Below are positions 647-62,771 of a stretch of DNA of 64,000 nucleotides, one piece after another. Origin of the DNA: Malacoraja senta (taxonomy: Eukaryota). Both the position numbers and the translations under genes were made by a program. Within the stretch, counting starts at the first letter, position 1. Every line of letters begins with the position of its first letter. The stretch is taken from NCBI GenBank assembly GCA_038087875.1, contig CM075993.1, positions 4,094,001-4,158,000 of the forward strand. The letters run 5' to 3'. A model generated the notes under the pieces. That model worked only from the letters and a program-made list of their open reading frames with translations. It made no database searches and was not told the DNA's origin.

Positions 647-919
647 CAACTATTTGTGTGCCTACCCCGTAATCTACATCCCTCTGTAAGCAAAGATCAA
701 CACAAAGAGCTGACAGGTCAGGCAGCATCTTTGGAGAAAAAATGATGGGTGACATTTCGGACTCTTCTTCAGACTGAAAGTGGACTTTCCAGAGATGCTG
801 CCTGACCTGCTGAAGCCCTTTGCGTCTATCTTCAGTATAAACCAGTATCTACAGTTCCTTGTTCCTGCATTCCCTCCATATCCATATGCCTATCCAAAAG
901 TCTCTTAAACACCACTATC

Positions 920-1373
920 TCAAAATGTGGATTGCAAGTATGTTGGATACCGCACATTTTGAGGAAATGCGATTCCTCCTAATAGATAAATTTGACCAAT
1001 TCATAACGAGTTGGTCTCCATTTGTCGTCTTTTGGAAACATATGGTGGAACACAGGTGTAAAAGCTAATCCGTGACTGGGTGAGGGATGGTCAAGTGTAT
1101 AAATACGATCTCCTTACTTCTCTTTTCTTTTTCTTCTCTTTTCTTCTTTTACTCCTTTTCTTCTATTTTCTATTTCTTAACTTTCTTCTTTCCCTCTCTA
1201 TTTTTCTTTTTCACACACTATATATCTCACATTTTTCTATTCTTCATTATCTAATTTCTTTTTCTTTTTTATTACAAAATTAAAAAAATAAGAAGCTGTA
1301 CATAAAATGTATTATGAAAATATGATTGTATACAATTGTACTTACTTCTAATAAAAATAAAAATAAATAAAAA
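920..1373 (+). mobile_element. L1-clade LINE 3' end
   Basis: W...E.......F...WSPF C-terminal motif; T-rich UTR; A-rich tail; TSD ACCACTATC (911-919 / 1374-1382). Confidence 0.65.
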
Positions 1374-1727
1374 ACCACTATCATACTCGCCTCCACCACC
1401 ATCCCCAGCAAGGTAGTCACCACTCACTGTGTAAAAACAAAAATCGCCCTGCACATCCCCTTTAAATTTTGCCCCTCTCATCATAAAGCAATCCCTCCAG
1501 TCTTTGATACCGATTTATAACCCGAACATCCACGGATTACAATCACGGAGAAAAGGAATTAGTCCCAAAGTGGTGGGAAAAATCCCAGTATCACCACTAG
1601 TTAGTCACGGGAACACAAGGTGGTGAAAATTACTATTTAGCAGTTTTGTGGAGTATATCCGTGATGTATATTGTATTAAACAAACAATTCTTTGTTCACC
1701 GATTAGAAATATTTTTTAAAAGGTTAC

Positions 1728-1803
1728 CTGTGCAAAACCATCGACCTCATTAACATGGACAGGGTGAAACAGCAGGAGGTAGCGACGGCACAGATGTAAC
1801 AGA
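1728..1803 (-). CDS. STRA6: STRA6 coding exon 11 (VCYICAVATSCCFTLSMLMRSMVLHR); gene continues beyond the window start
   Basis: Resembles [26 protein letters not shown]; 76 nt, phase 1 to 2. Confidence 0.95.
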
Positions 1804-2617
1804 CTGCAGGAAGAAAAATGAACAGTGATCTTTCATCACTAATATTATACCGATAAAGCACAGAACAGGGGTGGCATGTTGGCGCAACGGTAAGGTACTG
1901 CCTCACAGCGCCAGAGACCCGGGTTCCATCCTGGCTATCGGTGCTGCCTCTACGGAGTCTGCATGTTTTCCCCCCGTGACCTGTGTGGGTTTTCCCTGAG
2001 ATCTTTGGTTTCTTCCCACACTCCACAGATCTGTAGGCTAATTGGATGGTATCAATGTAAAATTGTCCCGAGTGTGTGTGTGTAGGGTAGTGTCAGTGTG
2101 CGGGCATCGCTGTCGGTGCGGACTTGGTGGGCCGAAGGGCCTGTTTTCCCGCTGTAACACTACAGCCACGGAACAGGCCCTTCATCCCAGTCTGTGCCAT
2201 ACATAATAAAATATAGCAATCCCATCTGCCTACACGTGATCTATATCTCTCCATTCCCCACATGCTGATACAAAAGCCTCTTAAGCCACACTCTCATATC
2301 AGCCTCCACCACCAACCCTGTTAGTGTGTTCCAGGCACCCATCACCCTCTCAAAGCTTCCCCCCACAAATCTCCTTTAAAATGTGCCCTTCTCACCTTAA
2401 CGCTAAGTCCCCTATTCATTGACATTTCCATCCTGTGAAAAAGGTTTCGACTGTCTACCCTATCTATGTCTCTCATAATTTTATATACTTCTACCAGGTC
2501 TCCCCGCAATCTTTTGGTATTCCAGGGAAAACAATCCAAGTTTTGTCCAAACCTCTCTTTATAACTAAAACAACCAGACAGCAAGAGATCAAAAATGCAT
2601 TTCGTACGAGTCAGTTA

Positions 2618-3320
2618 ACACAGACACAAAATGCTGGAGTAACTCAGCAGCATCTCTGGAGAGAAGGAATGGGTGACGTTTTCGGGTCGAGACCCTTCTT
2701 CAGACTGAGAGTCAGGGGAGAGGGAGACACAGAGATATGGAAGGCCGAGGTGTGAAAGCGAGACATCAAAGGGGACGAAGTTCAAGGAAAATGTAGAATA
2801 GATCATTGTTAGCTAGGGGGAAGGTGATAAAGCATAGGAAGATAACATTTAACCAGGATTAAATTAAAATATAACTTAATCTACTGTATACGCTGTTCCA
2901 GGTGTGGACTCCTATATATTGGCAAGACGAAGCACAGGCTCGGTGATCGTTCGCTGAACACCTCCGCTCAGTCCGCCTAAACCTACCTGATCTCCCGGTT
3001 GCTAAACATTTTAACTCCCCCTCCCATTCCTACACTGACCTTTCTGTCCTGGGCCTCCTCCATTGTCAGAGTGAGGCCCAACGCAAATTGGAGGAACAGC
3101 ACCACACATTTCACTTGGGCAGCTTATACCCCAGCGGTTGGACTTCTCTAACTTCAAGTAGCCCTTGCTTCCCCCCCTCTCTCTCCAACCTCTCCTCTAT
3201 CCTAGATCTCAGACACGTTGCCTATTTCCTTCGCTCCGTAGATGCTGCCTCACCCACTGGGTTTCTCCAGCATTTTTATCTACCATAGATTTTTCCAGCA
3301 TCTGCAGTTCCTTTTTAAAC
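2618..3320. mobile_element. Penelope-like remnants in inverted arrangement
   Basis: Minus-strand terminal repeat with HHR at about 2675-2703; plus-strand GIY-YIG remnant at about 2884-3170, then the terminal repeat tail. Confidence 0.75.
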
Positions 3321-3373
3321 AAATGCTCGGGGTGATAGTTTCTCCATTTCAAAACCGTACAAAACGCTGCTAC

Positions 3374-3536
3374 CTTCCATGATCCAAAAGTAATATTTGA
3401 CAATTCGGATCACTTCGGCCCTCTTATCTGACAAGTTGATCCCAAACCCTTCCAGTATGTAGGAGAATTCTTCATGGACTCCAGCTCGCATCTTCTGCAG
3501 GGTTGGGACCACGTCCACTACAAGCAGAAGGGCAAC
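3374..3536 (-). CDS. STRA6: STRA6 coding exon 10 (VALLLVVDVVPTLQKMRAGVHEEFSYILEGFGINLSDKRAEVIRIVKYYFWIME)
   Basis: Strong match to [20 protein letters not shown]...GFGIVLSED (RBP-binding region); 163 nt, phase 0 to 1. Confidence 0.96.
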
Positions 3537-3685
3537 CTGCCGGGGGGCAAAGAGAGCAAGAGCTACTTAAAAAAGGTGACAGATAATATACGATTGTTGG
3601 CGTCATGTTTGTTGATCGCTGATGCCAAAAACTCCCATGTCTGTCGATAGTTGCTAACGCAAGCATTAAAACCATCTCTACCAAA

Positions 3686-3969
3686 TGGGCCTGCCCCACT
3701 CACGCGACTTTTTCAGCCGACTGCCGGCACCCGTCGCCGAAAATTTTCAACATGTTGAAAATCCAGTGGCAACCAGAAAGACGCCACGACTCTTTGGGCG
3801 ACTGAGGAGACGACTCACGACCATACAGGCGACATGTCGCGGGCTGAAGCCTGTATGGTCGTGAGTAGTCCCCAAAGAGTCGCTGGATTTTCAACATGTT
3901 GAAAATTTTCGGCGACCTATGACGGGTGCTGGCAGTCGCCGAAAAAGTCGCGCAAGTGGGACAGGCCCA
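3686..3969. mobile_element. PIF/Harbinger-type MITE
   Basis: TIR TGGGCCTG(C/T)CCCACT; internal palindrome TTTTCAACATGTTGAAAA twice. Confidence 0.75.
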
Positions 3970-5296
3970 TTAGTCTTTCACCTTAAACCCATATACCCAC
4001 CACCCTCTGAGTGAAAAAAGGTTCCTTTTAAATACATGTACTTTTTATCTTGCCCCTCTCACCTTAAGCCTACGTCTTGTGGTTTTTGATTCCTCGACTC
4101 TGGTAAAAGACTCTGCATTTATCCTATCCATACCCCACATTGTTTTACATATCTCTGCAAGATTCCCCAGCGTCCCAAGGAACAAAGCCCTGGCCTGCCT
4201 AACCTCTCCCTGCCTAATTAGGCTCAGACCCTCAAGTCCTGGCAACACCCTTGCAAATCTTCTCTGCACTCTTCCCAACTGAATGGATCCCTTCCTATCG
4301 CAGGGCGACTACAGTGGCCTCACTAACGTCTCGATTATTGCTGCAATGTTGGAAACAAAGACAAATGTCAACTAGCAAGCACAAAAGCAATCATAGATCG
4401 GATAATTAGATTAGCAATGTTAATTGAAGGGCATATAACTAACCCACAACTGAGGTCTTGACTTATTGTCTCATTTGAAAAGGCACATGTGCGTGCACAT
4501 AGACTGCTAATACAAACAATTCAAGTTAATGGGACTGGCTCTGCTGCCGTGACATAGAACAGTACAGGATCAGGCCCTTCGGCCCACAATGTCCGTACCA
4601 ACCGTGATGCCACGACCAACTCTTGCACTTAATCCCTATTCCTTTTTCTCACAGAGAGTGGTGCGTCGGTGGAATTCTCTGCCTCAGAGGGCGGTGGAGG
4701 CCGGTTCTCTGGATGCTTTCAAGAGAGAGCTAGATAGGGCTCTTAAAAATAGCGGAGTCAGGGGATATGGGGAAAAGGCAGGAACGGGGTACTGATTGGG
4801 GATGATCAGCCAATTAAGAGGGAGATAGATGTGGCCTTTGTGGCTAAAGGGATCAGGGGGTATGGAGAGATGGCAGGTACAGGATACTGTGTTGGATGAT
4901 CAGCCATGATCATATTGAATGGCGGTGCAGGCTCGAAGGGCCGAATGGCCTACTCCTGCACCTATTGTCTATTGTCCTTTATTCCATGCATATCCATGTG
5001 CCTATCCAAAAGCCTCCTAAATGCCATATTGTATCAGCCTCCACCACCACCCCAGGCAGTGTTCCAGGCACCCACCACCCTCTGTGTATGAAAACTTGCT
5101 TCCCACGTCTCCTTTGAGTTTTGCCCCACTTCGCTTAGCGCCATGACTTCTAGTCTTTGACAACTCCAACCCGGGATGAAGGTTCTGCCTGTCTACCCTA
5201 TCCGTGCCTCTGCTTGGAATAAAGACAACGTGTCCAAACGTGTGGATGATTCAGGTGCTGCAGAGTCAAGACCAAGGTTTGAATGAATAGAACTAC

Positions 5297-5358
5297 CTGA
5301 TAGATGGTCACCAGAGCCACCATCATAGACACAGTTAACTTTGGTGGAATTCTGAAAC
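5297..5358 (-). CDS. STRA6: STRA6 coding exon 9 (GFRIPPKLTVSMMVALVTIYQ)
   Basis: Resembles GFHLPLKLVLS...IYQ; 62 nt, phase 1 to 0. Confidence 0.92.
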
Positions 5359-5472
5359 CTGCATTAAAAAGAAAAAGGAGAAATCGGTTAAAGAAAATTG
5401 GTTATCACGTTCTTCACCAAACGTTCTTCACCAAAAGGAACTCTCAGTTGATAATTCTGAAGCATTTATACT

Positions 5473-6082
5473 ACATAGATACATAGAAAATAGGTGCAGG
5501 AGTAGGCCATTCAATATGATCATCCAACTCAGTATCCCGTACCTGCCTTCTCTCCATACCCCCTGATCCCTTTAGCCACAAGGGCCACATCTAACTCCCT
5601 CTTAAATATAGCCAATGAACTGGCCTCAACTACCCTCTGTGGCAGAGAGTTCCAGAGACTCACCACTCTGTGTGAAAAAGTTTTTCCTCATCTCGGTCTT
5701 AAAGGATTTCCCCCTTATCCTTAAGCTGTGACCCCTTGTCCTGGACTTCCCCAACATCGGGAACAATCTTCCTGCATCTAGCCTGTCCAACCCCATAAGA
5801 ATTTTGTACGTTTCTATAAGATCCCCTCTCAATCTCCTAAATTCTAGCGAGTATAAGCCAAGTCTATCCAGTCTTTCTTCATATGAAAGTCCTGACATCC
5901 CAGGAATCAGTCTGGTGAACCTTCTCTGCACTCCCTCTATGGCTATAATGTCCTTCCTCAGATTTGGAGACCAAAACTGTACGCAATACTCCAGGTGTGG
6001 TCTCACCAAGACCCTGTACAACTGCAGTAGAACCTCCCTGCTCCTATACTCAAATCCTTTTGCTATGAAAGCTAACATACCA
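5473..6082 (-). mobile_element. CR1 (HER1-like) LINE 3' fragment
   Basis: LYRVLVRPHLEYCVQFWSP...VQRRFTRLIPG...RRLRGDLIETYK...RTRGH; (CTATGTAT) tail. Confidence 0.93.
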
Positions 6083-6569
6083 TACTATTCCAAGGTCACG
6101 GACCCGGCAGCTATTCTTTGCAATACAAGCGATTCCTTGTTTAAACATAGAAAAGGAAACAGGCAGTAACCTTGAACTGGAAGATTTCACAGCTGCAGGC
6201 AATTGTTTTGCTGTTATCAAGACAGGGAACTGCAACTCAAAATTGGGGGGGGGGGGGGGGGGGGGGGGAGAGAAATAGTGTGGAAAGAACTCAGATTCAA
6301 GATTTCAGCCAAGATGCTTCTTTAAAAAGTCAGAACTTCCAAATGGTCAAGGAATAGGGTGGCACAGTGGTAGAGCTGCTGCCTCACAGCGCCAGAGACC
6401 TGGGTTCGATCCTGACTGCGGGTGTTGCCTGTACGGAGTTTGTACGCTCTCCCCGCGACCTGCGTGGGTTTTCTCTGGTTTCCTCCCACACTCCAAAGAC
6501 GCAAGAGTTGGTCGGTTAATTGGCTTGGTGAAATTGGAAATGGTCCCCAGTGTGTGTAGGATAGCGTTA

Positions 6570-7531
6570 AGGGCCCTGTCCCACTTACGCGACCTTTACA
6601 GGCGACTGGCGGCACGTGTCATAGGTGGCCGAAATTTTCAACATGTTGAAAATTCAGCGGCGACCAGAAAGACGCTACGACTCTTTGGAGACCTCTCACG
6701 ACCATAGGCTGTACGGTCGTGAGAGATCTCCTATGGTCGTGAGAGGTCTCCTATGGTCGTGAGAGATCTCCTATGGTCGTGAGAGATCTCCTATGGTCGT
6801 GAGAGATCTCCTATGGTCGTGAGAGATCTCCTAGCGTCATGAGAGGTCTCCTATGGTCCCGAGAGGTCTCCTATGGTCCCGAGAGGTCTCCTATGGTCCC
6901 GAGAGGTCTCCTATGGTCCCGAGAGGTCTCCTATGGTCCCGAGAGGTCTCCTATGGTCCCGAGAGGTCTCCTATGGTCGTGAGAGGTCTCCTATGGTCGT
7001 GAGAGGTCTCCTATGGTCGTGAGAGAGCTCCTATGGTCGTGAGAGGTCTCCTATGGTCGTGAGAGGTCTCCTATGGTCGTGAGAGGTCTCCTATGGTCGT
7101 GAGAGGTCTCCTATGGTCGTGAGAGGTCACCCTCAACATGTCGCCAGGGGTCGCCTGTATGGTCGTGAGAGGTCTCCTATGGTCGTGAGAGGTCTCCTGT
7201 GGTCGTGAGAGATCTCCTGTGGTCGTGAGAGGTCTCCTATGGTCCTGAGAGGTCTCCTATGGTCCTGAGAGGTCTCCTATGGTCCTGAGAGGTCTCCTAT
7301 GGTCCTGAGAGGTCTCCTATGGTCCTGAGAGGTCTCCTATGGTCCTGAGAGGTCTCCTATGGTCCTGAGAGGTCTCCTATGGTCCTGAGAGGTCTCCTAT
7401 GGTCCTGAGAGGTCTCCAAAGAGTCGTAGCGTCTTTCTGGTCGCCGCTGAATTTTCAACGTTGAAAATTTCAGCAACCTATGACGGGTGCCTGCAGTCGC
7501 CTGTAAAGGTCGCGCAAGTGGGACAGGCCCT
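6570..7531. mobile_element. PIF/Harbinger-type MITE with internal 20-bp minisatellite, inserted in a V-SINE
   Basis: TIR AGGGCC(C)TGTCCCACT...AGTGGGACAGGCCCT; TSD TTA. Confidence 0.85.
6715..7417. repeat. 20-bp minisatellite (GGTCGTGAGAGGTCTCCTAT)n, about 33-34 units
   Basis: Direct tandem units with block-wise variants; one interruption at about 7131-7160. Confidence 0.95.
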
Positions 7532-8248
7532 TTAGTGTGTGTGGGGATCGCTGGTCGATACGGACTCGGTGGGCCAAATGGGTCCGTTTCCACGCGGTAT
7601 CTCCAAACAAAACAAAATGGAAGTTCCCATTTGATCCAAGTTCCTGCAGGCAGGATGGAGTCAAACGTCTCAATGCGCTTCGCCCTCCCAAAAGGAGAGC
7701 TGGCGCATTTATGAAGTGCTCAGTACTCTGTGAAGTTGGGGGATGAGGTGGGCTGGAGTCTACTTTCTAATTGAGGTGGAATGTTGTGATCAGAATGCAT
7801 CGTGGAAACAGATGCAATTGTAACTTTACATAAAGGGTGTGGAAGATTAGCGGGACATAGTTGGAACACATCCAATGGGCCAAATGGCAGTTTTATTTTA
7901 TTCTAAGAGATAAAAAGGGAGCAGAAGTAACAAACTACTGGAGGAACCTAGAGGATTAGACATCATCTGTTGAGGGAAATGGTCAGACAAGAATTGTTGT
8001 ACAACTGGAGGAGATGAAGCAGCAATTGAATGTTGAGCATAAGTGAAACAGCTGAAGGCACTCAACGGGTCAGGCGGCATCCGTGGAGGGAATGGACAGA
8101 CGTTTCATGGACCTTCCCTCCACAGATGCTACCTGACCCACTCGAGTTCCTCCAGCACGTTGCCTTTTTTGCTCAAGATTCCAGCACCTGCAGTTTCTTG
8201 CATCTCCGTCAAGTTGGAAAGAGACCAGTTTGAGCTTCAGGCTTTTAC

Positions 8249-8325
8249 CTTTCATCGGAATGTAGATATAGGATCTCAATAAAGCCCTGACTTTGGACGT
8301 GATGCACGACTCATCTGTGCGCGCA
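8249..8325 (-). CDS. STRA6: STRA6 coding exon 8 (ARTDESCITSKVRALLRSYIYIPMK)
   Basis: 77 nt, phase 2 to 1; resembles LRHCIYTPQPG; AG acceptor, GTAAAA donor. Confidence 0.88.
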
Positions 8326-8449
8326 CTAAAGGGGAAGATCGGAAGGAAAAACAGTACAGTAAGCTCTTGGAATGAGTTGAATCAACTCTGAACAATTATT
8401 AAACTCTGTTTCCATGACGGTGCAGTAACTTGAAAAGTTATTCCCAAAC

Positions 8450-8517
8450 CTGTTCTTGGATGGTCTTTTCTTCAACAAGACTCTCAAGTAGTCCATGTAG
8501 TATTCGTCGGCTTGCCA
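8450..8517 (-). CDS. STRA6: STRA6 coding exon 7 (WQADEYYMDYLRVLLKKRPSKN)
   Basis: Resembles YSEEYLRNLLCRK; 68 nt, phase 0 to 2; long pyrimidine tract. Confidence 0.9.
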
Positions 8518-9597
8518 CTGAAAGTTGGGTAGGAAGGAAGAAGAGGGATATAGGGATAAATACCCAGCAGAACTCCAGTAATTTCCAACTCATCAGGCAA
8601 CAACTGCTGTCTGATGAAACGTGAAACATACTGCTGACCACATTGCACTTCATCAGTGAGGCATGGGCAGAGAAGAAAACCATTCTCTACTCAGACATGA
8701 AGGAAGACCCAAACATAGAAACCAGTTGCAAGAGTAGGCCCATTCGGCCCGTCGAACCATTCAATATGATCATGGCTGAAAATCAGTGCATCGTTCCCGG
8801 TTTCTCCCCATATCCCTTGATTCCGTTAAAGGCCTGTCCTAGGCGACTGCCGAATGGCCTACTCCTGCACCTATTGTCTATTGTCAAAACGTCACCTACT
8901 CAACGCTTTCCGGAGATGCTGCCTGACCTGTTGAGTTACGCCAGCAGATTGTAAACCAGAATGTGCAGTTCCTTGGGTCTGCATCTGCAGGCAAGGTGTT
9001 CCAGATTCTCACCACAATTTGCACGAAAGACGGATAAAGAAATCCCCAAATACGGTCGCATTACTATGGCTAGTTATTATTATTTTTTAATTAATTAAAT
9101 TCCTGGGTTAGCCCATAAAATCACCCTTTGACGTTAGACACAAAAAGCTGGAGTAACTCAGCGGGTCAGACTGCATCTCTGGAGAGAAGGAACAGGTGAC
9201 GTTTCAGATTGTCGCTTTGTTGGTGCCCTTTATGTGTTGACTATTGGCATACCTTGTGAATGCAAGTAAAGAATTTCACTATGACTTGACATAGATACAT
9301 AGAAAATAGGTGCAGGAGTAGGCCATTCGGCCCTTCGAGCCTGCACCGCCATTCAATATGATCATGGCTGATCATCCAACTCAGTGACAATAAAGTATTC
9401 ATTCATTCATTATCTTGTTGAGTGTCATTGAAGTCATAATCCTGTTTCCCCCAACTCTCAGTCTGAAGAAGGGCCTTGACCCAAAACGTCACCTATTCCT
9501 ATTCTCCAGAGATGCCGTCTAACCCGCTGAGTTACTCCAGCTTTTTATGTCAATCTCCGGTTTAAACCAGCATCTGCGGTTCCTTCCTGCACCCTTA

Positions 9598-9980
9598 AGC
9601 CCCTGTCCCACTTAGGAGACCTAAACAGCAACCTCTGGTGACCTTGCCTGCCACCCATGGTTTCCATGAGGTCACCGGAGGTTTTGGTCACTCTCCCTAA
9701 TGGTCGAAAGTGGTTTCCGTGTGGTCGAGGCTTCATCTAGGTTGCTGCTATTTTCTCATCGTGATTAAAACCGGCCTCGACTAAAAATAGGTTGCCGTTT
9801 AAAAAAAATTTTAGTCGCAGCTCAAGTCGAAGCCGGTTTTCTTCATAGTCGAGGAAGGTTTTCAACATACGTGTGGGAGGTGGTAGGAGGTTGCAGGTCA
9901 CCTCGACCTTGATTTTTTTTTGGGTGGCGGGCAAGGTCACCAGAGGTTGCCGTTTAGGTCTCCTAAGTGGGACAGGGGCT
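9598..9980. mobile_element. PIF/Harbinger-type MITE
   Basis: Long TIR AGCCCCTGTCCCACTTAGGAGACCTAAAC; TSD TTA. Confidence 0.85.
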
Positions 9981-10038
9981 TTAGATGTTAAGTCGCCAAC
10001 CGATCCCACACCACCCTCAGTGAATTGCCGACACTTAC

Positions 10039-10164
10039 CCAATGCAACGTCGAATTCCTCGACTTCTCACCATTCCTCAGTAACAAAACAGGGTAAACGA
10101 CACTTAGATACCCCAGACACAGGAACTGCGGGAGGCTTCTCAGCAGGGTATAGTATTTGTATTG
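10039..10164 (-). CDS. STRA6: STRA6 coding exon 6 (QYKYYTLLRSLPQFLCLGYLSVVYPVLLLRNGEKSRNSTLHW)
   Basis: Resembles [25 protein letters not shown]; 126 nt, phase 0 to 0; GTAAGT donor. Confidence 0.95.
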
Positions 10165-10619
10165 CTGGGTTGCAAAACAAGGCAAGAGATTAAATATTTT
10201 AATTAGTTTTAACATTCAACAAACCACTGGCTTCTCCCATTTTCCTCGCTACTTTTTAAGGTCATAAGTGATAGGAGCAGAATAAGGCCATTCTGCCCAT
10301 TGTCCATTCAATCATGGCTAATCATTGTCCATTCAATCATCCAGACCTGGAGCGGGGCCTTGCATCGCCCGGCGTTAATGGCCACGGGACTTATTTTCCA
10401 TCGCCGGCCGGGGGCTCTGACTCTGACATCGGGAGGAGAATGGGGAGTGCAGGGGAGAGATAAGACTTTGCCTTCCATCACAGCGAGGAGATTCGCTGTG
10501 ATGGATGTTTGTGTAAATTGTGTTGTGTCTGGGTTCTTTTTACTTGTTTGTATGACTGCAGAAACCAAATTTCGTTTGAACTTAATTTGAGGTTCAAATG
10601 ACAATAAATGGTATTGTAT

Positions 10620-11240
10620 TGTATCTATCTCTCCCTCCTAGTCCCATTCTCCTGCCTTCTCCCCATAACCCCCGACACCAGTCCTAATCAAGAATCTATC
10701 TATCTCTGCCTTAAATATATCCACTGACTTGGCCTCCACAGCCTTCTGTGGCAAAGAATTCCACAGATTCACCACCCTCTGACTAAAGAAATTCTTCCTC
10801 ATCTCCTTCCTAAAGGAACATCCTTTAATTCTGAGGCTATGACCTCTGGTCCTAGACTCTCCCACAAGGGGAAACATCCTCTCCACCTCCACTCTATCCA
10901 AGCCTTTCATTCTGTACATTTCAATGAGGTCCCCCCTCATTCTTCTAAACTCCAGCGAGTACAGGCCCAGTGCCGTCAAATGTTCATCATGTTAACCTAC
11001 TAATTCCTGGGATCATTCTCGTAAAAGAGTCTGAAGAAGGGTGTTGACCAGAAACGTCACCCATTCCTTCTCTCCAGAGACGCTGCCTGTCCCGCTGAGT
11101 TACTCCAGCTTTTTCCGTCTATCCTCGGTCTTAACCAGCATCTGCAGTTCCTTCCTACATCATTCCTGTTAACCTCCTCTGGACTCTCCAGAGCCAGCAC
11201 ATCCTTCCTCAGATACGGTGCCCAAAATTGCTCACAATTT
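10620..11240 (-). mobile_element. CR1 LINE 3' fragment with nested Penelope unit
   Basis: LGLYSLEFRRMRGDLIE...WNSLPQKAVEA; PLE unit at about 11026-11160. Confidence 0.88.
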
Positions 11241-11464
11241 GTGCTTTATGGAAACCAAGTCAAGGCAGCAGAACGGAGAGATCTCGGCACTGAAGCCGAA
11301 CAAGCTACTTCTTCAGATAACAAGGCAAAATAGGGACCATTGTCCCGGTTTTAATACAAATCACTTCAAGCTTCCACAATAGTGATACTGTTTACACGGT
11401 TCTTAAGGACAGAATTAAATCTCCAATTAAAACTTAAGGCTGTTGCATAAGCAGAAATAATTAC

Positions 11465-11631
11465 CTCTCGTGATAAGGGGCATTCAACTTTCTGCCAGAT
11501 GAGAACTCCAGTGTGCAGCCAGGACAGCAGACTTCCAAGCGCGAAGCCCACTTTGTTTTTGACCGTTGCACAAGCGAGCAGGGGGTAGTACAGAGCAGGG
11601 TAGTAGAGTAATGCAGCTATCTTCCAGTACT
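11465..11631 (-). CDS. STRA6: STRA6 coding exon 5 ([56 protein letters not shown])
   Basis: WKI...YYPL.ACAT...LGS.LSW.H.GV..WQ..ECP signature; 167 nt, phase 1 to 0; AG/GT ends. Confidence 0.96.
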
Positions 11632-11838
11632 CTACGGGGTAGAATTAGACAGGACAGACAGAATCATGGTTACAGTACTGCAGCCAACAGGAACAAGATT
11701 CATGAAAGGACTCAGAGTGCTGGAGTAACTGGACTCAGAGTGCTGGACAAAGAGTAATGGTAGGTTTAGAGATACAGCGCAGAAAGAGGCCCCTTCCACC
11801 CACCGAGTCCGCGCCGACCAGCGATCCCCGTACACTAA

Positions 11839-12171
11839 AAGCCCTGTCCCACTGTACGAGTTCATTCAAGAATTCTCCCCGAGCTTGCCCCGATTCGAAC
11901 TCGGAGATTTACCGCAATGGCCACTCGTCGGTACTCGGGGCTCTCGTGGACATTTTGCAACATGTTGAAAAATCTTCACGAGTCTTCCCGAGCTTACCTG
12001 CCGTTGTTAGCGAGTCTTCCCGAGTACCTGCCGTTAGCGTTACGAGCCGCTAAGAGACGTCCCCGAGCTCCGACGTACCCGCTACGTTCATTCTCCGTGC
12101 TTACCACGAGTTTGTTTTTTTTTAAAACTCGGGAGAGCTCTTGAATGAACTCGTATAGTGGGACAGGGCTA
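11839..12171. mobile_element. PIF/Harbinger-type MITE inside a minus-strand V-SINE
   Basis: TIR AGCCCTGTCCCAC; TSD TAA; same subfamily as the 58700 copy, opposite orientation. Confidence 0.85.
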
Positions 12172-12927
12172 TAACACTATTCTGCACACTACGGGTAATT
12201 TACATTTTTTACCCAAGCCTAATTAACCTACAAACCTGTACGTCTTTGGAGTGTGGGAGGAAACCGCAGAAAACCCACGTAGTCACAAGAAGAACATACA
12301 AACTAATAGGCTAACAATTTGTGTTCTTTTCTTAAATATAAACTAGCAACTGCAATTCCTTGTTGCTACAGTGTTCACGAGTTATGTCCTTAATTATTCA
12401 TACAGGTTTTTGGTCTCCGTGACATTTATAGGCAATCTTCAAATGCCCCTTAGAAAGATGACAGGTTATCCAAGAACTGCTGCATGGTGTGGTGAAGATG
12501 TCTTCCCACATCCCCAAGACGTGCCGCTTTGTAGGCCAATTGGCCTCTGTAAATTGCCACTAGTGTGTCTGGAGCGGGTGAGAAAGTGGGAGAACACAGA
12601 AATAGCGTGTACAGGTGAAGAAGGGTCTCGACCCGAAACGTCACCCATTCCTTCTCTCCAGAGATGCTGCCTGTCCCGCTGAGTTACTCCAGCTTTTTGT
12701 GTCTATGAACGGGTGATCGATGGTTCGAGTGGACTTCACGGGCTGAAGCGTGCAGGAAGGAACTGCAGATGCTGGTTTAAACCGAAGATGGGCAAAAAAA
12801 GCTGGAGTAACTCTGCGGGTCAGACAGCATCTGTGGGGTGAGAAAATATATTTCAACTCACCAGATAGTTTTTTTAATTTCAGAATTAGTGGCAGCATGG
12901 TGGCGTCACGATAAACCTACAGCCTAA

Positions 12928-12997
12928 AGGGCCTGTCCCACTTGGGCGTCATTTGCGCGTTACGCAAGCGTCGTGACGCGCAAATGAGACAGGCCCT
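12928..12997. mobile_element. 70-bp PIF/Harbinger-type MITE in a V-SINE head
   Basis: TIR AGGGCCTGTC; related partial copy at about 19038-19193. Confidence 0.7.
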
Positions 12998-13479
12998 TTA
13001 GAGCGCCAGAGACTAATGTTCGAACCCGACTGTGGGGGCTTGTCTGTACGGAGTCTGTACATTCTCCCCGTGACCCATGTAGGTTTTCTCCAAGATCATC
13101 GGTTTCCTCCCACAATGCAAAAACGTACAGGTTTGGAGGTTAATTGGCTTGGTATAAATGTAAATGGTCCCTAGTTTGTGTAGGACAGTGTTAATGTGCG
13201 GGGATCGCCTGTTGGTGCAGACTAGGTGGGCAGAAGAGCCTGTTTCCGCACTGTATCTCTAAAGAATACTAAGCAATGACTCATTCCTGCACTCAACACT
13301 TCTTAACAATGGAGGACCTGGCGTAGGGGGACCGCCGTGATGAAGGGGGGCTTGGGGAGAACAAAGGTGGGTCTGGCGCAGGATACTTTGTATCTTTTTC
13401 AGCACCCTTTATGTGGCAACTATTTGCATACCTTGGGAATGTATGCAAAGAATTTCACTGTGACAATAAAGTATTGTAT

Positions 13480-13727
13480 TGGAACAGCATCCCTCTTCCC
13501 ATCCGAACTGCCCCCTCCATCGATTCTTTTAAGTCGAGACTTAAAACTCATCTTTACTCCCAAGCCTTTCCTGACGTCCTCCGAGGGAGGGCTATATGTA
13601 TGTACTTATGTATGTACTTAATCTATGAACCACTGTTGTATAATGTTAGTACCTCCACCAATGTAAAGCACTTTGGTCAACGAGAGTTGTTTTTTAAATG
13701 TGCTATAGAAATAAAAGTGACTTGACT
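13480..13727 (+). mobile_element. L2-clade LINE 3' end
   Basis: WNSIPLPIRTAPSIDSFKSRLKTHLYSQAF; GTAAAGCACTTTG...AATAAA tail. Confidence 0.75.
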
Positions 13728-13965
13728 ATTCATTCATTCATAAACTTGGTAAGAGTGTCACTGAAGTCATAATCTTGTTTCCTTTGACTCTCAGTCTGAA
13801 GAAGTGCCTCGACCCGAAACGTCACCCATTCCTTTTTCTCCAGAGATGCTGTGTGACCCGCTGAGTTACTCCAGCTTTTTGTGTCTATCTCCATCACCTT
13901 CGGTCCGGGTTTTGGGGATTTCCTCCACCGTGTGGGGCGGGAAATGAAACAATTTGTCCCCTTAC

Positions 13966-14105
13966 CTTTGGTCTCCTTGGAGTATGCCAGGCCAATGGTC
14001 AGGGGAGTGCTGTCAATGGCCACACTACACACGGAACAGACAAGAACTCCAAACACAGCGGCAGCAATCCCTCGATGACAGTCGCTCTCCAGGAACCCGG
14101 CTGGA
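13966..14105 (-). CDS. STRA6: STRA6 coding exon 4 (PAGFLESDCHRGIAAAVFGVLVCSVCSVAIDSTPLTIGLAYSKETK)
   Basis: ttttccag acceptor, GTAAG donor; 140 nt, phase 2 to 1; resembles PVDFL...AAVF. Confidence 0.9.
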
Positions 14106-16116: not shown

Positions 16117-16133
16117 GGTTCACTCAGGGTTCA
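16117..16133 (+). promoter_or_regulatory. Candidate DR5 retinoic acid response element in STRA6 intron
   Basis: GGTTCA-CTCAG-GGTTCA, exact RGKTCA-N5-RGKTCA; extra half-site TGACCT at 16094-16099. Confidence 0.55.
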
Positions 16134-16171
16134 GGCAGCGAGCGGGGGGGGGGGGGGAGGAGACACTTAAC

Positions 16172-16257
16172 TGCAACAGGCCGGGAGCTCCACCGCAGCA
16201 ACTCCTCCACATCCACCTGCGCTTCACAAAGAGCGACAGGAACACAAGCACCACAAC
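16172..16257 (-). CDS. STRA6: STRA6 coding exon 3 (VVVLVFLSLFVKRRWMWRSCCGGAPGLL)
   Basis: Good acceptor; 86 nt, phase 0 to 2, fits both neighbours; resembles [27 protein letters not shown]; atypical donor GTTAAG. Confidence 0.85.
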
Positions 16258-18459: not shown

Positions 18460-18710
18460 GACACAAAATGCTGGAGTAACTCAGCGGGACAGGCAGCATC
18501 TCTGGAGAGAAGGATGTGGGTGACACAAAATGCTGGAGTAACTCAGCGGGACAGGCAGCATCTCTGGAGAGAAGGAATGGGTGACACAAAATGCTGGAGT
18601 AACTCAGCGGGACAGGCAGCATCTCTGGAGAGAAGGATGTGGGCGACACAAAATGCTGGAGTAACTCAGCGGGACAGGCAGCATCTCTGGAGAGAAGGAA
18701 TGGGTGACAC
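18460..18710 (-). repeat. Four tandem ~62-bp copies of the Penelope terminal-repeat tail
   Basis: GACACAAAATGCTGGAGTAACTCAGCGGGACAGGCAGCATCTCTGGAGAGAAGG... x4, alternating two variants. Confidence 0.9.
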
Positions 18711-44380: not shown

Positions 44381-44443
<63 letters not shown>

Positions 44444-46735: not shown

Positions 46736-47741
46736 TGGTCCAAAAGAGAGTGGCTCACAATGACCTTCTTGAAGGCTGTAGGAGACAGTCAATAAATGCT
46801 GACCTTTCAAACAAAGGGCTCATCCAGTGTGAATGAGAAAAGGTACAGTACAGCCCTAAAGGGCTGATTGGCCTCCCCCCCTCCCCCCCCACCAAAACAT
46901 TTCAGAAACCCTAGGTACACAAAAATGCTGGAGAAACTCAGCGAGTGCAGCAGCATCTATGGAGCGAAGGAAATAGGCAATTAAAACGTCACCTATCTCC
47001 TTCACTCCATAGATGCTGCTGCACCCGCTGAGTTCCTCCAGCATTTTTGTGTGCCTTCGATTTTCCAGCATCTGCAGTTCCTTCTTTAACATTTCAGAAA
47101 CCCTGACAGATTAATGGAGGTTTCTGACACGCATTTGGCGTGTTAATAGATCGCAACGAAACAAGTTTGTGGCAGAACATAACAAGCCATTAACTACAGC
47201 CGTGCGTTTCCTTTAGTAGCTCAGTGTACCCGATTCAGGCAGCATGATAAACACTGACAGGAGCTCAGAAGACAGGATTGTTTAATGAGGTGAAGCATTG
47301 GCGAACAAGCCATTGAAAATTCTCTTTCAAAGCGGCTGCTGAACCCAGACAGCTCGTGGATAAGAAAATGGCTGCTTTCTTTTACTGGTTCGTAGGTTCT
47401 GGCCCCAGAGGAACAGATCCACCAGACTTGGCTCACTGTCAACCTACTTAAAAAATGCTCCGATGTTTCAAGCTCGGTGCATTGTTTCTTGAATGGGTTT
47501 AAGAAGGAACTGCAGATGCTGCAAAATCGAAGGTAGACAAAAGTGCTGGAGAAACTCAGCGGGTGCAGTAGCATCTATGGAGCGAAGGAAATAGGCAACG
47601 CTTCGGGCCAAAACCCTTCTTCATATTGATGGGTACTTGAGGCGATGGCTCTCCACACCAAGGATAGGACAGGAGAGGCAAAGGGCTGCTTGCTATCCTT
47701 TGTCAATTCAGCAAGTGTTTGGTTCATAAGGCCACAAGTGA

Positions 47742-48398: not shown

Positions 48399-50019
48399 GT
48401 GATGGGAGCAGAATTAGGCCATTCGGCCCATCAAGTCTATTCTGCCCTTCAATCATGGCCGATCTATCTCTCCCTCCTAACCCCATTCTTCTGGCCTTCT
48501 CCCCATAACCCCTGACACCCGTACTAATTGGGAATCTACCTATCTTTGCCTTAAAAATATCTATTGACTTGGCCTCCACAGCATTCTGTGGCAAAGAATT
48601 CCACAGATTCACCACCCTCTGACTCAAGAAATTCCTCCTCATCCCCTTCATATAGGAAAGTCCCTTAATTTCTTTGTTTCTATTAGAGCTCTCGGGGCTA
48701 GAGGAGTCAGGGGATATGGGGAGAAGGCAGGCACGGGTTATTGATAGGGGACGATGAGCCATGATCGCAATGAATGGCGGTGCTGTCTCGAAGGGCCGAA
48801 TGGCCTCCTCCTGCACCTATTTCCTATGTTTCTATGTTTCTATGTTAATTCTGAGGCTATGCCCTCTAGTCATAGACTCTCCCACTAGTGGAAACAGTGG
48901 GGAATTTGCAAACTCCACACAGACAGCACCGGAGATCGGGATCAATCCCAGATTACCGGAACAGCGAGGCAGCAGCACCACCTGCTGTGCCACTCTGCCG
49001 ACTAGGTCTCGTGTCTTGCACTGCGTGATGTCACTTCAGCTACCTGCCAAAGAAGCATAAACCTTTTGAATATTCCAGCATTTACACTGCGTTTAGTCGT
49101 GCAGACTGTCCCCTCTGTGACCAGAATCTATGAGCAGCGATAAAATATTCAACACCTGTCTTTCAGTTGCGTTTCAGACTGGAAGGAAGCCTTCTAGGAA
49201 TTTTCTCCAGTTTCCCCTGCTTCCTTCAGAGAGAACAGCTTCTGTAGTTTTGCTTCTGGAGTCTGCAGCGGAGATCTCAGAGTAACACAAAGTCCTGGAG
49301 TAACTCAGCGGGTCAGACAGCATCACTGCGGGGCATAGATTGCAGTTGTTTCAGATCGGGACCCTCCTTCAGACCGATTGTACTGGGTTGAGGGGGGGGG
49401 GGGGGTGGAAGGTGGGGCAAGACAAAGCCTGGCAAGTGATAGGTGGATACAGATGAGGGAGATGCACAGTCTCTTGCCCAGGGTAAGAGATTTGAGAACC
49501 AGAGGATATTAATAGGAATCTGAGGGACTAACTTTTTCACACAAAGTGTGGTGGGTGTATGGAACCAACTGCCAGAGGAGATGGTGGAGGCTGGGACTAT
49601 CCCAACATTTAAGAAACAGTTAGACAGATACATGGATAGGACAGGTTTGAGGGATATGGACCAAACGCAGGCAGGTGGGACTAGTGTGGGACATGACTTC
49701 TGAAGAAGGGTTTCGACCCGAAACGTTGCCTATTTCCTTCGCTCCATAGATGCTGCCTCACCCGCTGAGATTCTCCAGCATTTTTGTCTCCCTAGTGAGG
49801 GACATGTTGGCCGGTGTGGTCAAGTTGGGCTGAAGGGCCTGTTTCCACTATGACTGTGACATGGGTTTAAAGTGAGGGGGGGGAAGATTTAATAGGTATC
49901 TGTGGGGTAACTGTTTCACACAAAGGGTGGTGGATGTGTGGAACGAGCTGCCAGTGGATGAAGGCTGCAGATGAAAAGGAGACAAAAGATCGTGAGATAA
50001 GAAGAGAAGGCACAAAGAG

Positions 50020-58129: not shown

Positions 58130-59185
58130 CTTCCAAATTTGAGGAAGGACATTCTTGCTATTGAGGGAGTGCAGTGTAGGTTCACCAGGTTAATTCCCGG
58201 GATGGCGGGACTGTCATATGTTGAAAGAGTGAAGCGACTGGGCTTGTACACACTGGAATTTAGAAGGATGAGAGGGAATCTAATTGAAACATATAAGATT
58301 ATTAACGGTAGACAGAAATGCTGGAGAAACTCAGCGGGTGCAGCAGCATCTATGGAGCGACTCTAACCCTAACCCAAAACATTGCCTATTTCCCTCGCTC
58401 CATAGATGCTGCTGCACCCGCTGAGTTTCTCCAGCATTTTTGTCTACCTTCGATTTTCCAGCATCTGCAGTTCCTTCTTAAACAAGATTATTAAGGGATT
58501 GGACACGCTAGAGGCAGGAAACGTGTTCCCAATGTTGTGGGAGTCCAGAACCAGGGGCCACAGTTTAAGAATAAAGGGTAGGCCATTTAGAACGGAGATG
58601 AGAAAAAGCTTTTTCACCCAGAGGGTTGTGAATCTGTGGAATTCTCTGCCTCAGAATGCAGTGGAGGCCAATTCTCTGGATGCTTTCAAGAGAGAGTTAA
58701 AGCCCTGTCCCACGGTACGAGTTCATTCCAAGAGCTCTCCTGAGTTTAAAAAAAATCAAACTCGTGGTAAGCACGGAGAATGAACGTAGCGGGTACGTCA
58801 GAGTTCGGGAACGTCTCTTAGCGGCTCGTAACGCTAACTGCAGGTACTCGGGAAGACTCGTTAATGGCAGGTAATCACGGGAAGACTCGTGAAGATTTTT
58901 CAACATGTTGAAAAATGTCCACGAGAGCCCCGAGTACCGACGAGTGGCCATTACCGTAAATCTCCGAGTTCGAATCAGGGCAAACTCGGGAGGGCTCTTG
59001 GAATGAACTCGTACCGTGGGACAAGGCTATTAGATAGAGCTCTTAAAGATAGTGGAGTCAAGGGATATGGGGAGAAGGCAGGAACAGGGCACTGATTGTG
59101 GATGATCAGCCATGATCACAGTGAATGGCGGTGCTGGCTCTAAGTGCCGATAGGCCTACTCCTGCACCTATTGTCTATTGTCTGT
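58130..59185 (+). mobile_element. CR1 3' fragment interrupted by a Penelope hairpin unit and a MITE
   Basis: PNLRKDILAIEGVQ...; resumes after 58494 and after 59029. Confidence 0.88.
58700..59029. mobile_element. PIF/Harbinger-type MITE inside a CR1 fragment
   Basis: TIR AGCCCTGTCCCACGGTACGAGTTCATTCCAAGAG; TSD TTA splits AGAGAGTTA/GATAG. Confidence 0.85.
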
Positions 59186-60001: not shown

Positions 60002-60025
60002 TCGTTTCCCTAATCCCTAACCAGT

Positions 60026-60053
60026 CTGAAGAAGGGTCTCGACCCGAAACGTC
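60026..60053 (+). ncRNA. Minimal type-I hammerhead ribozyme motif (representative intact copy)
   Basis: CUGAAGA, stem II GGGU-CUCG-ACCC, then GAA-ACGU-C; palindromic ACGU replaces helix III as in PLE minimal hammerheads. Confidence 0.7.
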
Positions 60054-60262
60054 ACCCATTCCTTCTCTCCAGAGACGCTGCCTGTCCCGCTGAGTTAATC
60101 CAGCTATTTGTGTCTATCTCCGGTATTACTTTAACATATCTTCATTATTGTCATGGGGTGGGAGATTGCAACCTTCACGTGGTCCACCCTGTTTCGACGA
60201 ATGCAATCAACCTGGCCTGCACAAATAGAAGATCAAACAGAACAAGTTGTCTTACACCTTTA

Positions 60263-60495
60263 AGGGCCTGTCCCACTTTCACGACCTAATTCACGACCTC
60301 TGCCGAGTTTGACGACTCTGACGACTCATACTCGCAGCATGGTCGTCACGAGGTCGTAGGAGGTCGTAGCAGGCCGTGATGCTAGTCGGAGGTACTCGTG
60401 GCACCAAGTAGGTCGGGGCGTTTTTTCTAGCCTGATGAAAAATGTCCACGAGTAAAAAAGGTTGTGAATTAGGTCTTGAAAGTGGGACAGGCCCT
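60263..60495. mobile_element. PIF/Harbinger-type MITE
   Basis: TIR AGGGCCTGTCCCACTTTCA; TSD TTA. Confidence 0.85.
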
Positions 60496-61222
60496 TTAGG
60501 CTGTGCACGCCATACACAAGAAGAAGATTATTGTCATCCATCAAACTTCCAAAGTGCAAGAAAGTCGGCTGCCATCTGCTTGCTCCCAGAGTGAACCTTG
60601 AACCACTCTCAGGATTTACAGCAGATGGGATAAAGGGGACGCCACCTCAATCACATTGGCTTTTGGCCCTCTCCTCCTCCACCAGTGACTGGGGCAGATG
60701 CACTCAATAGAGCCTTTATAATGAATCACCCCACTTTGCACAAGCTATCCAGGGTAGGGCTCTGGGCAATCAATTTGAGACATTTGAATGCAGAGTGGGG
60801 ATGCAAAATGTTTTCACTTTTCTGTGCTATGATGAACCAACTGAGGTTATACGAAGTGCAGTGTGAGAGCAGTCCTGATCTACCCCACAGGTGACCATTG
60901 GACCATCCTTTGTTTAAGAAATAACTGCAGATGCTGGAAAAAATCAAAGGTAGACAAAAATGCTGGGGAAACTCAGCGGGTGAGGCAGCATCTATGGAGC
61001 GAAGGAATAGGTGACGTTTCGGGTCGAGACCCTTCTTCAGACTGTTGTGTCTGCCAGGCCCTGGGCTCCATTTGGTGGGTGGTAGAGCAGGCACCTCTGG
61101 TCCTGGACTCTCCCACTAGTGGAGACATCCTTTCCACGTCCACTCCATCCAAGCCAAACGTTTACAGGGATATGAGCCAATGGCGGACAGGTGGGACTAG
61201 TATAGATAGGCAACTTAGTTGG

Positions 61223-61695
61223 TACACAAAAATGCTGGAGAAACTCAGCGGGTGCAGCAGCATCTATGGAGCGAAGGAAATAGGCAACGTTTCGGGCCGA
61301 AACCCTTCTTCAGACTGATAGGGGGTGGGGAGAAGAAAGGAAAAAAGGAAAAAGGCAGAGGAGGAGCCTGAGGGCTGGGGGAGGGGAGGAGACAACCAGA
61401 GGGCTGATGAAGGGGAGGGGACAGCAAGGGCTAGCAGAATTGGGAGAATTCAATGTTCAAGCCCCCAGGATGTAGACTGCCCAAGCGGAATATGAGGTGC
61501 ATTTCCTCCAATTTCCGGTGTTGCTCGCTGTGGCCATGGAGGAGACCCAGGAGAGAGAGGTCAGATACGGAATGGGAGGGGGAGTTGAAGCGCTGAGCCA
61601 CCGGGAGGTCAAGTTGGTTATTGCGGACCGGTGTTCGGCGAAACGATCGCCAAGCCTCCGCTTGGTCTCACCGATGTAGATCAGCTGGCATGTTG
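61223..61695 (-). mobile_element. Penelope-like element 3' fragment, same subfamily as the 21533 copy
   Basis: Near-identical to 21533-22010; TSD GGCAACTTAGTTGG (61209-61222 / 61696-61709); inserted in a CR1 tail. Confidence 0.88.
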
Positions 61696-62771
61696 GGCAA
61701 CTTAGTTGGCATGGGCAAGTTGGGCCGAGGGGCCTGTTTCCATGCTGTGTAACTCTATGTTAGCAGTCTGAACATAACAGTGAAATCTTCCCAACAAGTT
61801 CATGACACATAAAACCTCTTAAAGTAACATTCAGAATAATAAACTGACATATTAAGCACCACACATTAATATCTAGTGCAGTAATTTTGTTGGTAATGTC
61901 CCCATAATTCTATTCTGCCAGAATATTTTATTGGTCTGCTCTGTAGATGAAATACTGTATGGTGGTTTGGCTGTGTACCATTGATAATGGGAATGGGAAA
62001 GCAATCCTGTCTGCAACCATTTTGCAGTAACTACACATTTCATTCATCGTTTAGCAGACTAAGTGATTGTCTTTCTGAATTGATGATAATAGCATTTCTT
62101 GAAAGTGAGGGTCAAATTCATCGGTGTTGACAGCAACTGTATGGGGATAAACTGTAGACTTGTTCTCTATCTCTCTCTATATTCATTTGTTCTATATCTC
62201 TCCACATCACTATCTATTTCTCTCATTTCCCTTTCCCCAGACTAGTCTGCAGAAGGGTCTCGACCCAAATCGTCACCTATTCCTTCTCTCCAGGGGGTGT
62301 TTCCTGTCCCTCTGAGTTACTCCAGCATTTTGTGTCTCTTCGGTTTAAACCACCATCTGCAGTTCCTTCCTACACTATCCACCTGCAACCATTTTGCAGC
62401 AGCAGCATATATCATTCATAGTGTAGCAGACTAAGTGATTGTCTTTCTGAATTGATGTTAATAGCATTCTCTGAAAGTGAGGGTCGAATTCATCGGTGTT
62501 GACACCAACTTGTTGTTAGTGAGGTGACGGTGGCGCAGCGGTAGAGTTGCTGCCTTACAGCGAATGGAGCGCCGGAGACCCGGGTTCAATCCTGACTACG
62601 GGTGCTGTCTGTACGGAGTTTGTACGTTCTCCCCGTGATCTGCGTGGGTTTTCCCCCCACACTCCAAAGACGTACAGGTTTGTAGGTTAAATGGCTTGGT
62701 AAATGTAAAAATTGTCTCTTGTGGGTGTAGGATAGTGTTAATGTGTGGTGGGCCGAAGGGCCTGTTTCCAC

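Follow-up and report, generated by a model that had tools for sequence, protein, structure and literature searches.

Ribozyme-bearing repeats in skate DNA as probable 3′ ends of a Penelope-like element, with 5′ ends that pile up at the motif edge

What are the short repeats, each built around a minimal hammerhead ribozyme motif, that crowd a 64,000-nucleotide stretch of the genome of the skate Malacoraja senta? The stretch, called the window below, is contig CM075993.1 of assembly GCA_038087875.1, positions 4,094,001 to 4,158,000 of the forward strand. A first-pass annotation, made from the letters alone, had derived the repeats from Penelope elements and proposed that most of them behave as a ribozyme-headed family resembling short interspersed nuclear elements (SINEs). 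We assign a probability of about 0.7 to the reading that the units are the 3′ ends, or pseudo-long terminal repeats (pLTRs), of several subfamilies of a Neptune-type Penelope-like element (PLE), and that the short units, here called stumps, are by-products of this PLE. Coordinates are those of the window. Positions within a unit are numbered along the element from C3 of the CUGA box, which is 0; predicted cleavage falls between +27 and +28.

The population is large. A strict pattern for the minimal hammerhead matches the window 14 times and none of 100 dinucleotide-preserving resamples. Allowing up to three mismatches raises the count to 33, with none in the reversed window. A profile of the motif and its tail, built from 15 copies, finds 87 matches at E<=1, of which 83 reach E<=1e-3; the reversed control again gave none, and a second, sequence-only model also returned 83. 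These 83 matches to the ~135-nt unit lie on both strands between 689 and 62378, form 58 clusters and cover 8,063 bases. Six are without a boundary call and 12 without a subfamily label. The many copies on both strands described by the first-pass annotation are therefore real, and its 12 named coordinates are all among the strict matches, the minus-strand numbers being low ends. No hammerhead family was found by an Rfam scan among 29 matches at E<=1, all of which are hairpin or microsatellite noise under gathering scores; this is expected for minimal hammerhead variants.

All 14 exact copies have the make-up of a minimal hammerhead, with a CUGANGA...GAAA core, an extra base between positions 9 and 10.1, a G10.1-C11.1 pair, a palindromic ACGU and an NUH triplet. 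The motif was proposed to be a minimal type-I hammerhead with ACGU in place of helix III, and every feature of the PLE ribozymes described by Cervera & de la Peña (2014, PMC4209133) is present. These share the type I core, the unpaired base between A9 and G10.1, the G10.1-C11.1 pair and the palindromic 15.2-16.2 positions. They likewise have no helix III loop, reside in the pLTR, occur mostly as single dispersed motifs of truncated PLEs and form opposite-strand pairs. Unlike them, the skate motif has a helix II of 3-4 bp (7-8 in Schistosoma) and a helix I of 2 bp (typically 4-5, with 2 in D. virilis). That pLTRs carry minimal hammerheads, and that masses of single motifs derive from truncated PLEs, has been known since 2014 (PMC4209133).

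Linkage to coding sequence points to the source of the units. Six GIY-YIG open reading frame (ORF) ends lie within the window. In four copies with an intact motif (C3 at 17301, 21625, 30263 and 61313, all on the minus strand), the GIY-YIG end is located 93-118 nt upstream of C3, in agreement with the earlier remark that longer copies carry the motif just 3′ of such an ORF. The two others, 2864-3322 (+) and 33440-33697 (+), are joined to units missing the ribozyme 5′ half; at 33440-33697 the pyrimidine tract is absent too, near, but not precisely, a GT..AG excision. A complete unit consists of the ORF stop, a 93-118-nt pyrimidine tract, the minimal hammerhead, ~65 nt, a 3′ end at ~+93 and an optional ~35-nt tail to ~+128. 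The last 60 nt upstream of the motif are 68-87% pyrimidine in all ten long copies examined, and most end in YAG. The longest 3′ fragment (21532..22153, minus strand) contains a Zn-linker CxxC and GIY-YIG end (22141-21743), the tract, the intact motif and a short 3′ end (+94). A fragment of the same subfamily at 61221..61720 (minus strand), 95% identical to it over 393 nt, has an intact motif and a 3′ end at +93. The fragment at 30172..30664 (minus strand) also combines a GIY-YIG end and an intact motif with a short 3′ end (+93).

Pfam GIY-YIG is matched by one of 16 ORFs, at E 5.5e-4, under the cut-off. The longest GIY-YIG piece has 53 homologues at E<=1e-3, the top ones from skates, rays and sharks. 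Alignment revealed a C-terminal GIY-YIG domain, linked to the repeat, with two Cys between GIY and YIG. The linker of the window piece retains CxxC, its first Cys lying past the truncation, and the complete CX4CxxC is found in five of six aligned relatives. The reverse transcriptase (RT) domain RVT_1 is matched by three of five scanned relatives, each time under the cut-off. A CX2-5CxxC linker with a C-terminal endonuclease marks the Neptune/Nematis PLEs (Craig et al., 2021, PMC8557442), and we assign the element to a probable Neptune-type clade by linker and domain order. Endonuclease-bearing (EN+) members of these clades have the same C-terminal GIY-YIG with internal CxxC. They are also described with heavy 5′ truncation, an inverted truncated partner, a 30-40-bp tail at one end and target duplications (PMC8557442; Arkhipova et al., 2013, PMC3846280).

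The insertions in the window share this anatomy. The 3′ ends of 75 units are bimodal, with 24 at +88..98, 33 at +120..136, three between and 15 earlier; two or three members of a 62-bp array and two duplicated pieces were left out of the counts. This differs from the single ~100-nt tail first ascribed to every copy, and among the examples given for it the unit at 22308 (+) is interrupted right past the motif and that at 17863 (+) ends at +62. The gap of ~35 nt between the two 3′ ends matches the PLE tail, which was traced to two internal RT start sites in the anole Poseidon element PAc (Frangieh et al., 2024, PMC11167929). Each 3′ end is preceded by a CCAGCAU motif, and both motifs can pair with the same upstream AGAUGCUG (unit positions +48..55, +77..85 and +107..115). 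These predicted pairings are a possible structural switch that chooses the RT start site.

Inverted arrangement is common as well. Of 15 head-to-head pairs, 14 have a single tailed arm (one by way of a weak E=0.016 continuation; p ~4e-4, hand calculation), and the exception is an inverted duplication reaching into the flanks. At 19800-20110, an inverted duplication of a tailed unit reaches into flanking DNA and has a 34-bp internal repeat. Target duplications of 10-17 bp (score >=9) bracket six of the 15 pairs, compared with 3 of 210 controls (1.4%). At the same score they are found in six of 29 solo copies and 0.6% of 812 controls; the 29 solo copies, and the 39 core-bearing copies considered below, were selected by hand. 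A pairing of 36168 with 36434 was omitted because the 36302 copy between them bears its own target duplication. Neither the two 3′ end types nor the inverted pairs are confined to short or to long copies. Together with the GIY-YIG linkage, these marks uphold the Penelope origin proposed at first pass.

At 17171..17924, a single inverted PLE insertion is flanked by a 16-bp target duplication (17158-17173 / 17922-17937). Its minus arm comprises a GIY-YIG end (17716-17397), the pyrimidine tract, an intact motif (C3 17301) and a long tail to +130; its plus arm is a shorter copy with an intact motif (C3 17863) that ends at +62. In 31870..32058, the minus arm is tailed (+129), the plus arm (C3 31969, start -2) is untailed, and the target duplication measures 15 bp. 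In 29767..29937, a tailed minus arm from +28 faces an untailed plus arm from -3, with a 10-bp duplication. The pairs at 46913..47087, which lacks the ribozyme 5′ half, and 58309..58483 each have one tailed arm and duplications of 17 bp and 14 bp (1 mismatch), respectively. The pair at 22236..22641 (plus arm C3 22308; 12-bp duplication, 1 mismatch) was split by a later ~210-nt insertion just past the motif. Arms that differ at three subfamily-diagnostic sites (16/88 columns) are found at 35587..35826, where the duplication is merely 7 bp. The pairs were also compared with a possible origin of the two arms from two RNAs in mind: among the six strongly duplicated pairs, four show no diagnostic differences and two are explicable by decay, and the clearest mixed-subfamily pairs (2617/3322 and 35589/35826) are without strong duplications. 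Telomere-like hexamers of the CCCTAA type occur at 58360-58372, the inner junction of an inverted pair, and at 60008-60022, just upstream of the 60026 copy.

Where do the short units begin? Of 39 core-bearing copies, 21 have no sequence in common with any other copy upstream of -5, whereas 2.3 are expected from the truncation rate at +5..+69 (p 5e-16). The 5′ ends form a sharp pile-up at -4..+1. Upstream sharing is limited to the inverted partner arm in five more core-bearing copies, and two of the 21 (14482 and 23135) are possibly somewhat longer. Further 5′ ends are scattered over -15..-57 within the pyrimidine tract and make up a second, diffuse group. In four copies the target duplication comes to within a few bases of the 5′ boundary, and the pile-up is therefore not explained by a tract that was lost later. 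The first (36299..36426, plus strand; C3 36302) starts exactly at A(-3) and has a long tail and a 14-bp target duplication. Those at 32780..32910 (minus strand; 32908 copy; start -2/-1) and 26594..26727 (minus strand; 26725 copy; start -2..+1) also have long tails, with duplications of 12 bp and 13 bp (1 mismatch). The fourth (49699..49791, plus strand; 49700 copy) starts near -1 and has a short 3′ end (+92) and a 15-bp duplication (1 mismatch). A short unit at 28399..28508 (minus strand; +92 end, 14-bp target duplication) carries a 15-nt filler (28494-28508) before A(-3). The final 8-mer of the filler resembles the B-family tail end, and the filler is possibly a template jump. Two units with an intact motif are the short one at 60910..61044 (minus strand, antisense to CCDC33; C3 61040), with a start near -4 and a long tail, and 34066..34218 (plus strand; C3 34089), with ~50 nt of upstream tract and a long tail.

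Contigs from four public runs (X1, X6, X18 and X20), aligned to 17130-17730, reveal the same edge. X18 is possibly the window's own sample. Its summed contig depth, which is not copy number, drops ~27-fold from motif to tract, and the tract also diverges. We inspected 24 loose-end rows (beside 2,267 others) and 15 joints (beside 347 others). Among the rows listed, loose ends with unrelated flanks are found at -2 (X18 341, X20 464) and -3 (X1 78), and at the 3′ side at +93 (X1 56, X6 26). X6 may derive from RNA, and contigs do not in any case reveal where RNAs end.

At the boundary, TCAGTCT is found in six of the seven intact copies that retain upstream sequence and CCAGTCT in the seventh; we take TCAGTCT to be an initiator-type sequence. 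A downstream promoter element at +28..33 from A(-3) was also considered and not used: G-W-Y-V of the consensus fits and the first base does not. We propose, tentatively and at somewhat less than even odds, that the RNA of the skate Neptune-type PLE starts at the first bases of the ribozyme and that the enzyme, often priming on the 5′-most repeat of this RNA, has a 95- or 130-nt strong-stop stump as its commonest product.

A 3′ splice site would explain the same edge differently. The PLE origin would be unchanged, and the tract and the AG at -3/-2 would end a pLTR intron, with RT stalling at bound splicing factors or copying spliced RNA. The pyrimidine-rich, mostly YAG-ended upstream sequence agrees with this, as do the diffuse 5′ ends inside the tract and the intron of D. 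virilis, which ends at the 5′ end of helix I (PMC4209133). The 21 short-boundary copies, on the other hand, have no common upstream exon, and the 36302 copy retains directly past its target duplication the AG that splicing would remove. No clean GT..AG joint is present among the 15 joints listed. We consider the splice site unlikely as the cause of the pile-up. The splicing of host exons onto such an acceptor is ruled out for the copies in which a target duplication adjoins the boundary.

Several observations weigh against our interpretation of the units and their 5′ edge. The window contains no PLE RT and no full-length copy, so the RNA 5′ end is not directly visible. The boundary bases fit the tract and AG of a possible 3′ splice acceptor as well as they fit an initiator. 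In D. virilis the start site lies upstream by 46 nt plus a 75-nt intron that ends at helix I (PMC2377424, PMC4209133). The 5′ edge is seen in contigs of three of the four runs; X6 has no -2/-3 row among the six listed. Six of 60 5′ ends fall near the cleavage site at +25..29, where 2.6 are expected (p 0.045), an excess that is not significant for windows +26..30 or +27..29. Clear target duplications are absent from 23 of the 29 solo copies. Finally, the argument given below that stumps are dead on arrival rests on a Poseidon-clade element.

SINEs are short, non-coding, high-copy and reliant on the RT of another element. A self-propagating family of this kind, headed by the ribozyme, transcribed from an internal promoter and mobilised in trans by the PLE, would account for the fixed 5′ end and the high density of the short units. 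Penelope is transcribed from a promoter inside its pLTR (PMC2377424), and a pLTR is able to act in trans (PMC3846280). The loop variant TGTTGA, moreover, is restricted here to short or truncated copies (11031, 32908 and 18992). Unlike SINEs, the units have no RNA polymerase III A/B boxes (0 of 12 intact copies contain the pair in order at up to one mismatch). Their head is not derived from a tRNA, and ARAGORN found 0 tRNA genes; their 3′ tail is neither A-rich nor a simple repeat, and there is no sign of independent masters. The subfamilies, like the 3′ end types and inverted pairs, are common to short and long copies. Because short copies end at +93 or +128, they are also without the stretch past the RT start site on which the anole enzyme depends (PMC11167929). 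The SINE-like proposal of the first-pass annotation is quite improbable on these grounds.

Our model of how a PLE may generate the stumps builds on the results we regard as firm, namely the PLE linkage and anatomy, the two 3′ ends, the inverted pairs, the target duplications, the 5′ pile-up and the neutral decay described below. The PLE's own RT/GIY-YIG protein would lay down the units. By analogy with the anole PLE, this protein would nick both target strands and prime RT at one of two internal RNA sites, which would account both for the two 3′ ends and for inverted pairs in which one arm is tailed. In PAc, two internal RT starts lie behind the tail, both strands are nicked, uncleaved RNA is the substrate and template, and the ribozyme, inactive as naked RNA, needs protein (PMC11167929). 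Unlike the skate element, PAc belongs to another clade and its ORF starts at stem II, where skate units have no conserved start codon; the PAc evidence is in vitro and the skate evidence is a genomic record. The element RNA would have its 5′ end near -3, set by the initiator-like TCAGT or by trimming. Priming on the 5′-most pLTR would then give a ~95- or ~130-nt copy that runs off and integrates, like strong-stop complementary DNA. We lean slightly towards such a run-off step from an RNA 5′ end near -3. Jumps at the RNA 5′ end would produce head-to-tail joints and fillers such as that at 28490. Since stumps retain the whole motif, most templates would be uncleaved. In naked RNA the core is predicted to be trapped in a competing hairpin, so that any cleavage would require an ACGU dimer and help from protein. 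Stumps should not transpose again, because PAc needs RNA beyond the RT start sites, which would never be copied into them. They would be dead on arrival, and their decay would be neutral.

Head-to-tail joints from -1/-2 to +94, with a period of 96-97, are found in contigs of all four runs and bring retrozymes into consideration. The units would then be monomers made by dimeric-hammerhead cleavage, circularisation and rolling-circle copying. Non-LTR retrozymes are similarly short, non-coding, pLTR-derived and often monomeric, have a type I hammerhead and have been reported from one chondrichthyan genome (bioRxiv 10.64898/2026.07.22.740005). A tandem of 4.1 x 62 bp of the +25/28..+90 segment (18460..18712, minus strand) also starts at the cleavage triplet. 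Its junction on GUC is at the same time a 3-nt microhomology, its variants alternate (period 123), and it is without the ribozyme core. Retrozymes are defined by at least two consecutive complete-ribozyme tandem units (bioRxiv 10.64898/2026.07.22.740005), and the window has no tandem with two complete ribozymes. A circle predicts permuted ends or +28 ends rather than -3..-1, and no +28 end is present among the 24 loose-end rows listed. We regard a retrozyme origin as very unlikely. The intact cores at 61040 and 61313, 273 nt apart on the same strand, are the sole such pair under 2 kb and the best candidate for a natural cis-dimer. A partial head-to-tail tandem at 22933-23254 (+) consists of a short-ended unit and, after it, another copy whose ~120 nt of upstream sequence belong to a different region, partly common to the 49372 copy.

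Is the ribozyme itself functional? Structural analysis of the motif confirmed a very short helix I, as had been suspected, of 2 bp with U-A or U·G. The GGG/CCC pairs of stem II were correctly described; the stem is usually 4 bp with a 4-nt loop, not the 6-nt loop proposed. The fourth pair, U-A or U·G, is paired in 21 of 25 copies. The CCACAA loop probably arose from CCGCGA by CpG decay. Over helices I and II of 25 copies, 88.7% of 150 cells are paired, which is not above shuffles. Two-sided covariation, a check suggested with the first-pass annotation, was found in 0 of 6 pairs, the changes being solely one-sided between U-A and U·G. No longer helix I through upstream sequence or a spliced exon was found by inspection.

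Conservation differs between subfamilies and among copies. The consensuses of the two main subfamilies, A and B, have nine differences, none of which is in the invariant core or the G-C pairs of stem II; one is at H17 (C/U). Between subfamilies, every core position is preserved, as are the additional base that follows A9, G10.1-C11.1, ACGU and H17 (U or C). Non-CpG mismatch is 3.4% in the core and 7.1% in the tail (p 0.015), with ascertainment favouring the core, and CpG mismatch is 21% and 17%, respectively (p 0.66). The essential G12, which lies in a CpG, is altered in 14 of 46 copies. The earlier statement that the GGG/CCC pairs and core are kept is true of the subfamily consensuses compared with one another and fails within copies after insertion. 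This pattern reads as selection on master elements, whose inserted copies then decay neutrally.

In native context, the 5′ core and left stem II arm are predicted to pair with bases past the cleavage site. This is also the consensus fold, and both subfamily changes within the competing hairpin preserve its pairing. With the native 3′ context, the predicted stem II pairing probability is 0-0.03 in four of five copies, which bears out the doubt expressed about monomer activity, and 0.31 in the fifth. The unit at 60008..60120 (plus strand; C3 60026), previously put forward for a cleavage assay, is a B-subfamily copy with ~27 nt of upstream tract and is predicted to form the core-sequestering hairpin, not a hammerhead. 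The ACGU dimer is the minimum-energy fold in 0 of 15 constructs. Folding z-scores of seven units, from -1.09 to 0.73, indicate no unusual stability. The predicted lock-up of the core fits the protein-assisted ribozyme of the anole element.

These results also bear on the idea that the motif is catalytically dead in this lineage and kept as a promoter or protein-binding signal of the pLTR, which is compatible with a PLE origin of the units. The 2-bp helix I and the lack of two-sided covariation agree with it. So do the energies of 37-nt core dimers: the fold with helices II and III scores -12.7 to -15.3 kcal/mol, and the dimer minima reach -19.7 to -25.0. Slow cleavage in the dimeric state is published for PLE ribozymes (PMC4209133; Lünse et al. 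via PMC6765202), and one of nine Xenopus dimers cleaved, the other eight being without cleavage (bioRxiv 10.64898/2026.07.22.740005). On the other side, the features kept between subfamilies and the lower non-CpG mismatch of the core, with the ascertainment noted above, argue for retained function. The 2-bp helix I has its D. virilis precedent (PMC4209133), and cleavage by the anole ribozyme does occur when protein is present (PMC11167929). A dead motif is rather unlikely in our view.

Both host genes named at first pass are present. STRA6 coding exons for residues 1-371 of 665 lie at 1727..20646 on the minus strand, the remainder being past the left end, and most exons match skate proteins at ~80-100%. 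The first three coding exons of CCDC33 (residues 1-302 of ~1100) were detected at 40243..44799 on the plus strand, and no later exons were detected within the window. CCDC33 exons 40243-40514 and 42054-42438 (+) need three frame changes to track the Pristis protein, owing to assembly indels or gene decay. Treating the span past 44799 as CCDC33 intron, which is assumed, we counted 21 of 42 matches, 7 of 15 whole-core copies and 3 of 6 intact copies in sense orientation, which does not support the suggested excess of sense copies in introns. Another 36 of 78 matches lie between the STRA6 and CCDC33 start codons, where gene membership is not established. The window also contains a 20-bp minisatellite of ~35 copies (6715-7417) and, at 62790-63877 (+), frameshifted RT pieces of a different retrotransposon (RVT_1 and ALKBH8_N matches) unrelated to the PLE.

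As far as the available text of PMC4209133 goes, no shark or skate example is given. In the literature searched, we found no description of such a family from sharks, skates or other cartilaginous fish, apart from the preprint on the retrozymes of one chondrichthyan; Repbase, Dfam and supplements may hold the family. Nor did that literature describe a pile-up of 5′ ends at the ribozyme edge. This pile-up is the new observation here, and it hints at where the element RNA starts.

The window documents how densely PLE ends can populate skate DNA: its 64 kb contain 58 loci. The copies appear to be neutral for the host: without orientation bias in STRA6 and CCDC33, and with core decay at the CpG rate, intronic self-cleavage is unlikely to matter much. 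The role of the PLE ribozyme is still open (PMC8557442, PMC11167929). If our proposal is true, the genome would log, at very high copy number, where the RNA starts, the two sites of RT initiation, jumps between templates at the RNA 5′ end and a hammerhead that is normally uncut. If the pile-up marks the RNA start, it would provide an in vivo readout of PLE replication, and ribozyme cleavage would be unnecessary for most insertions.

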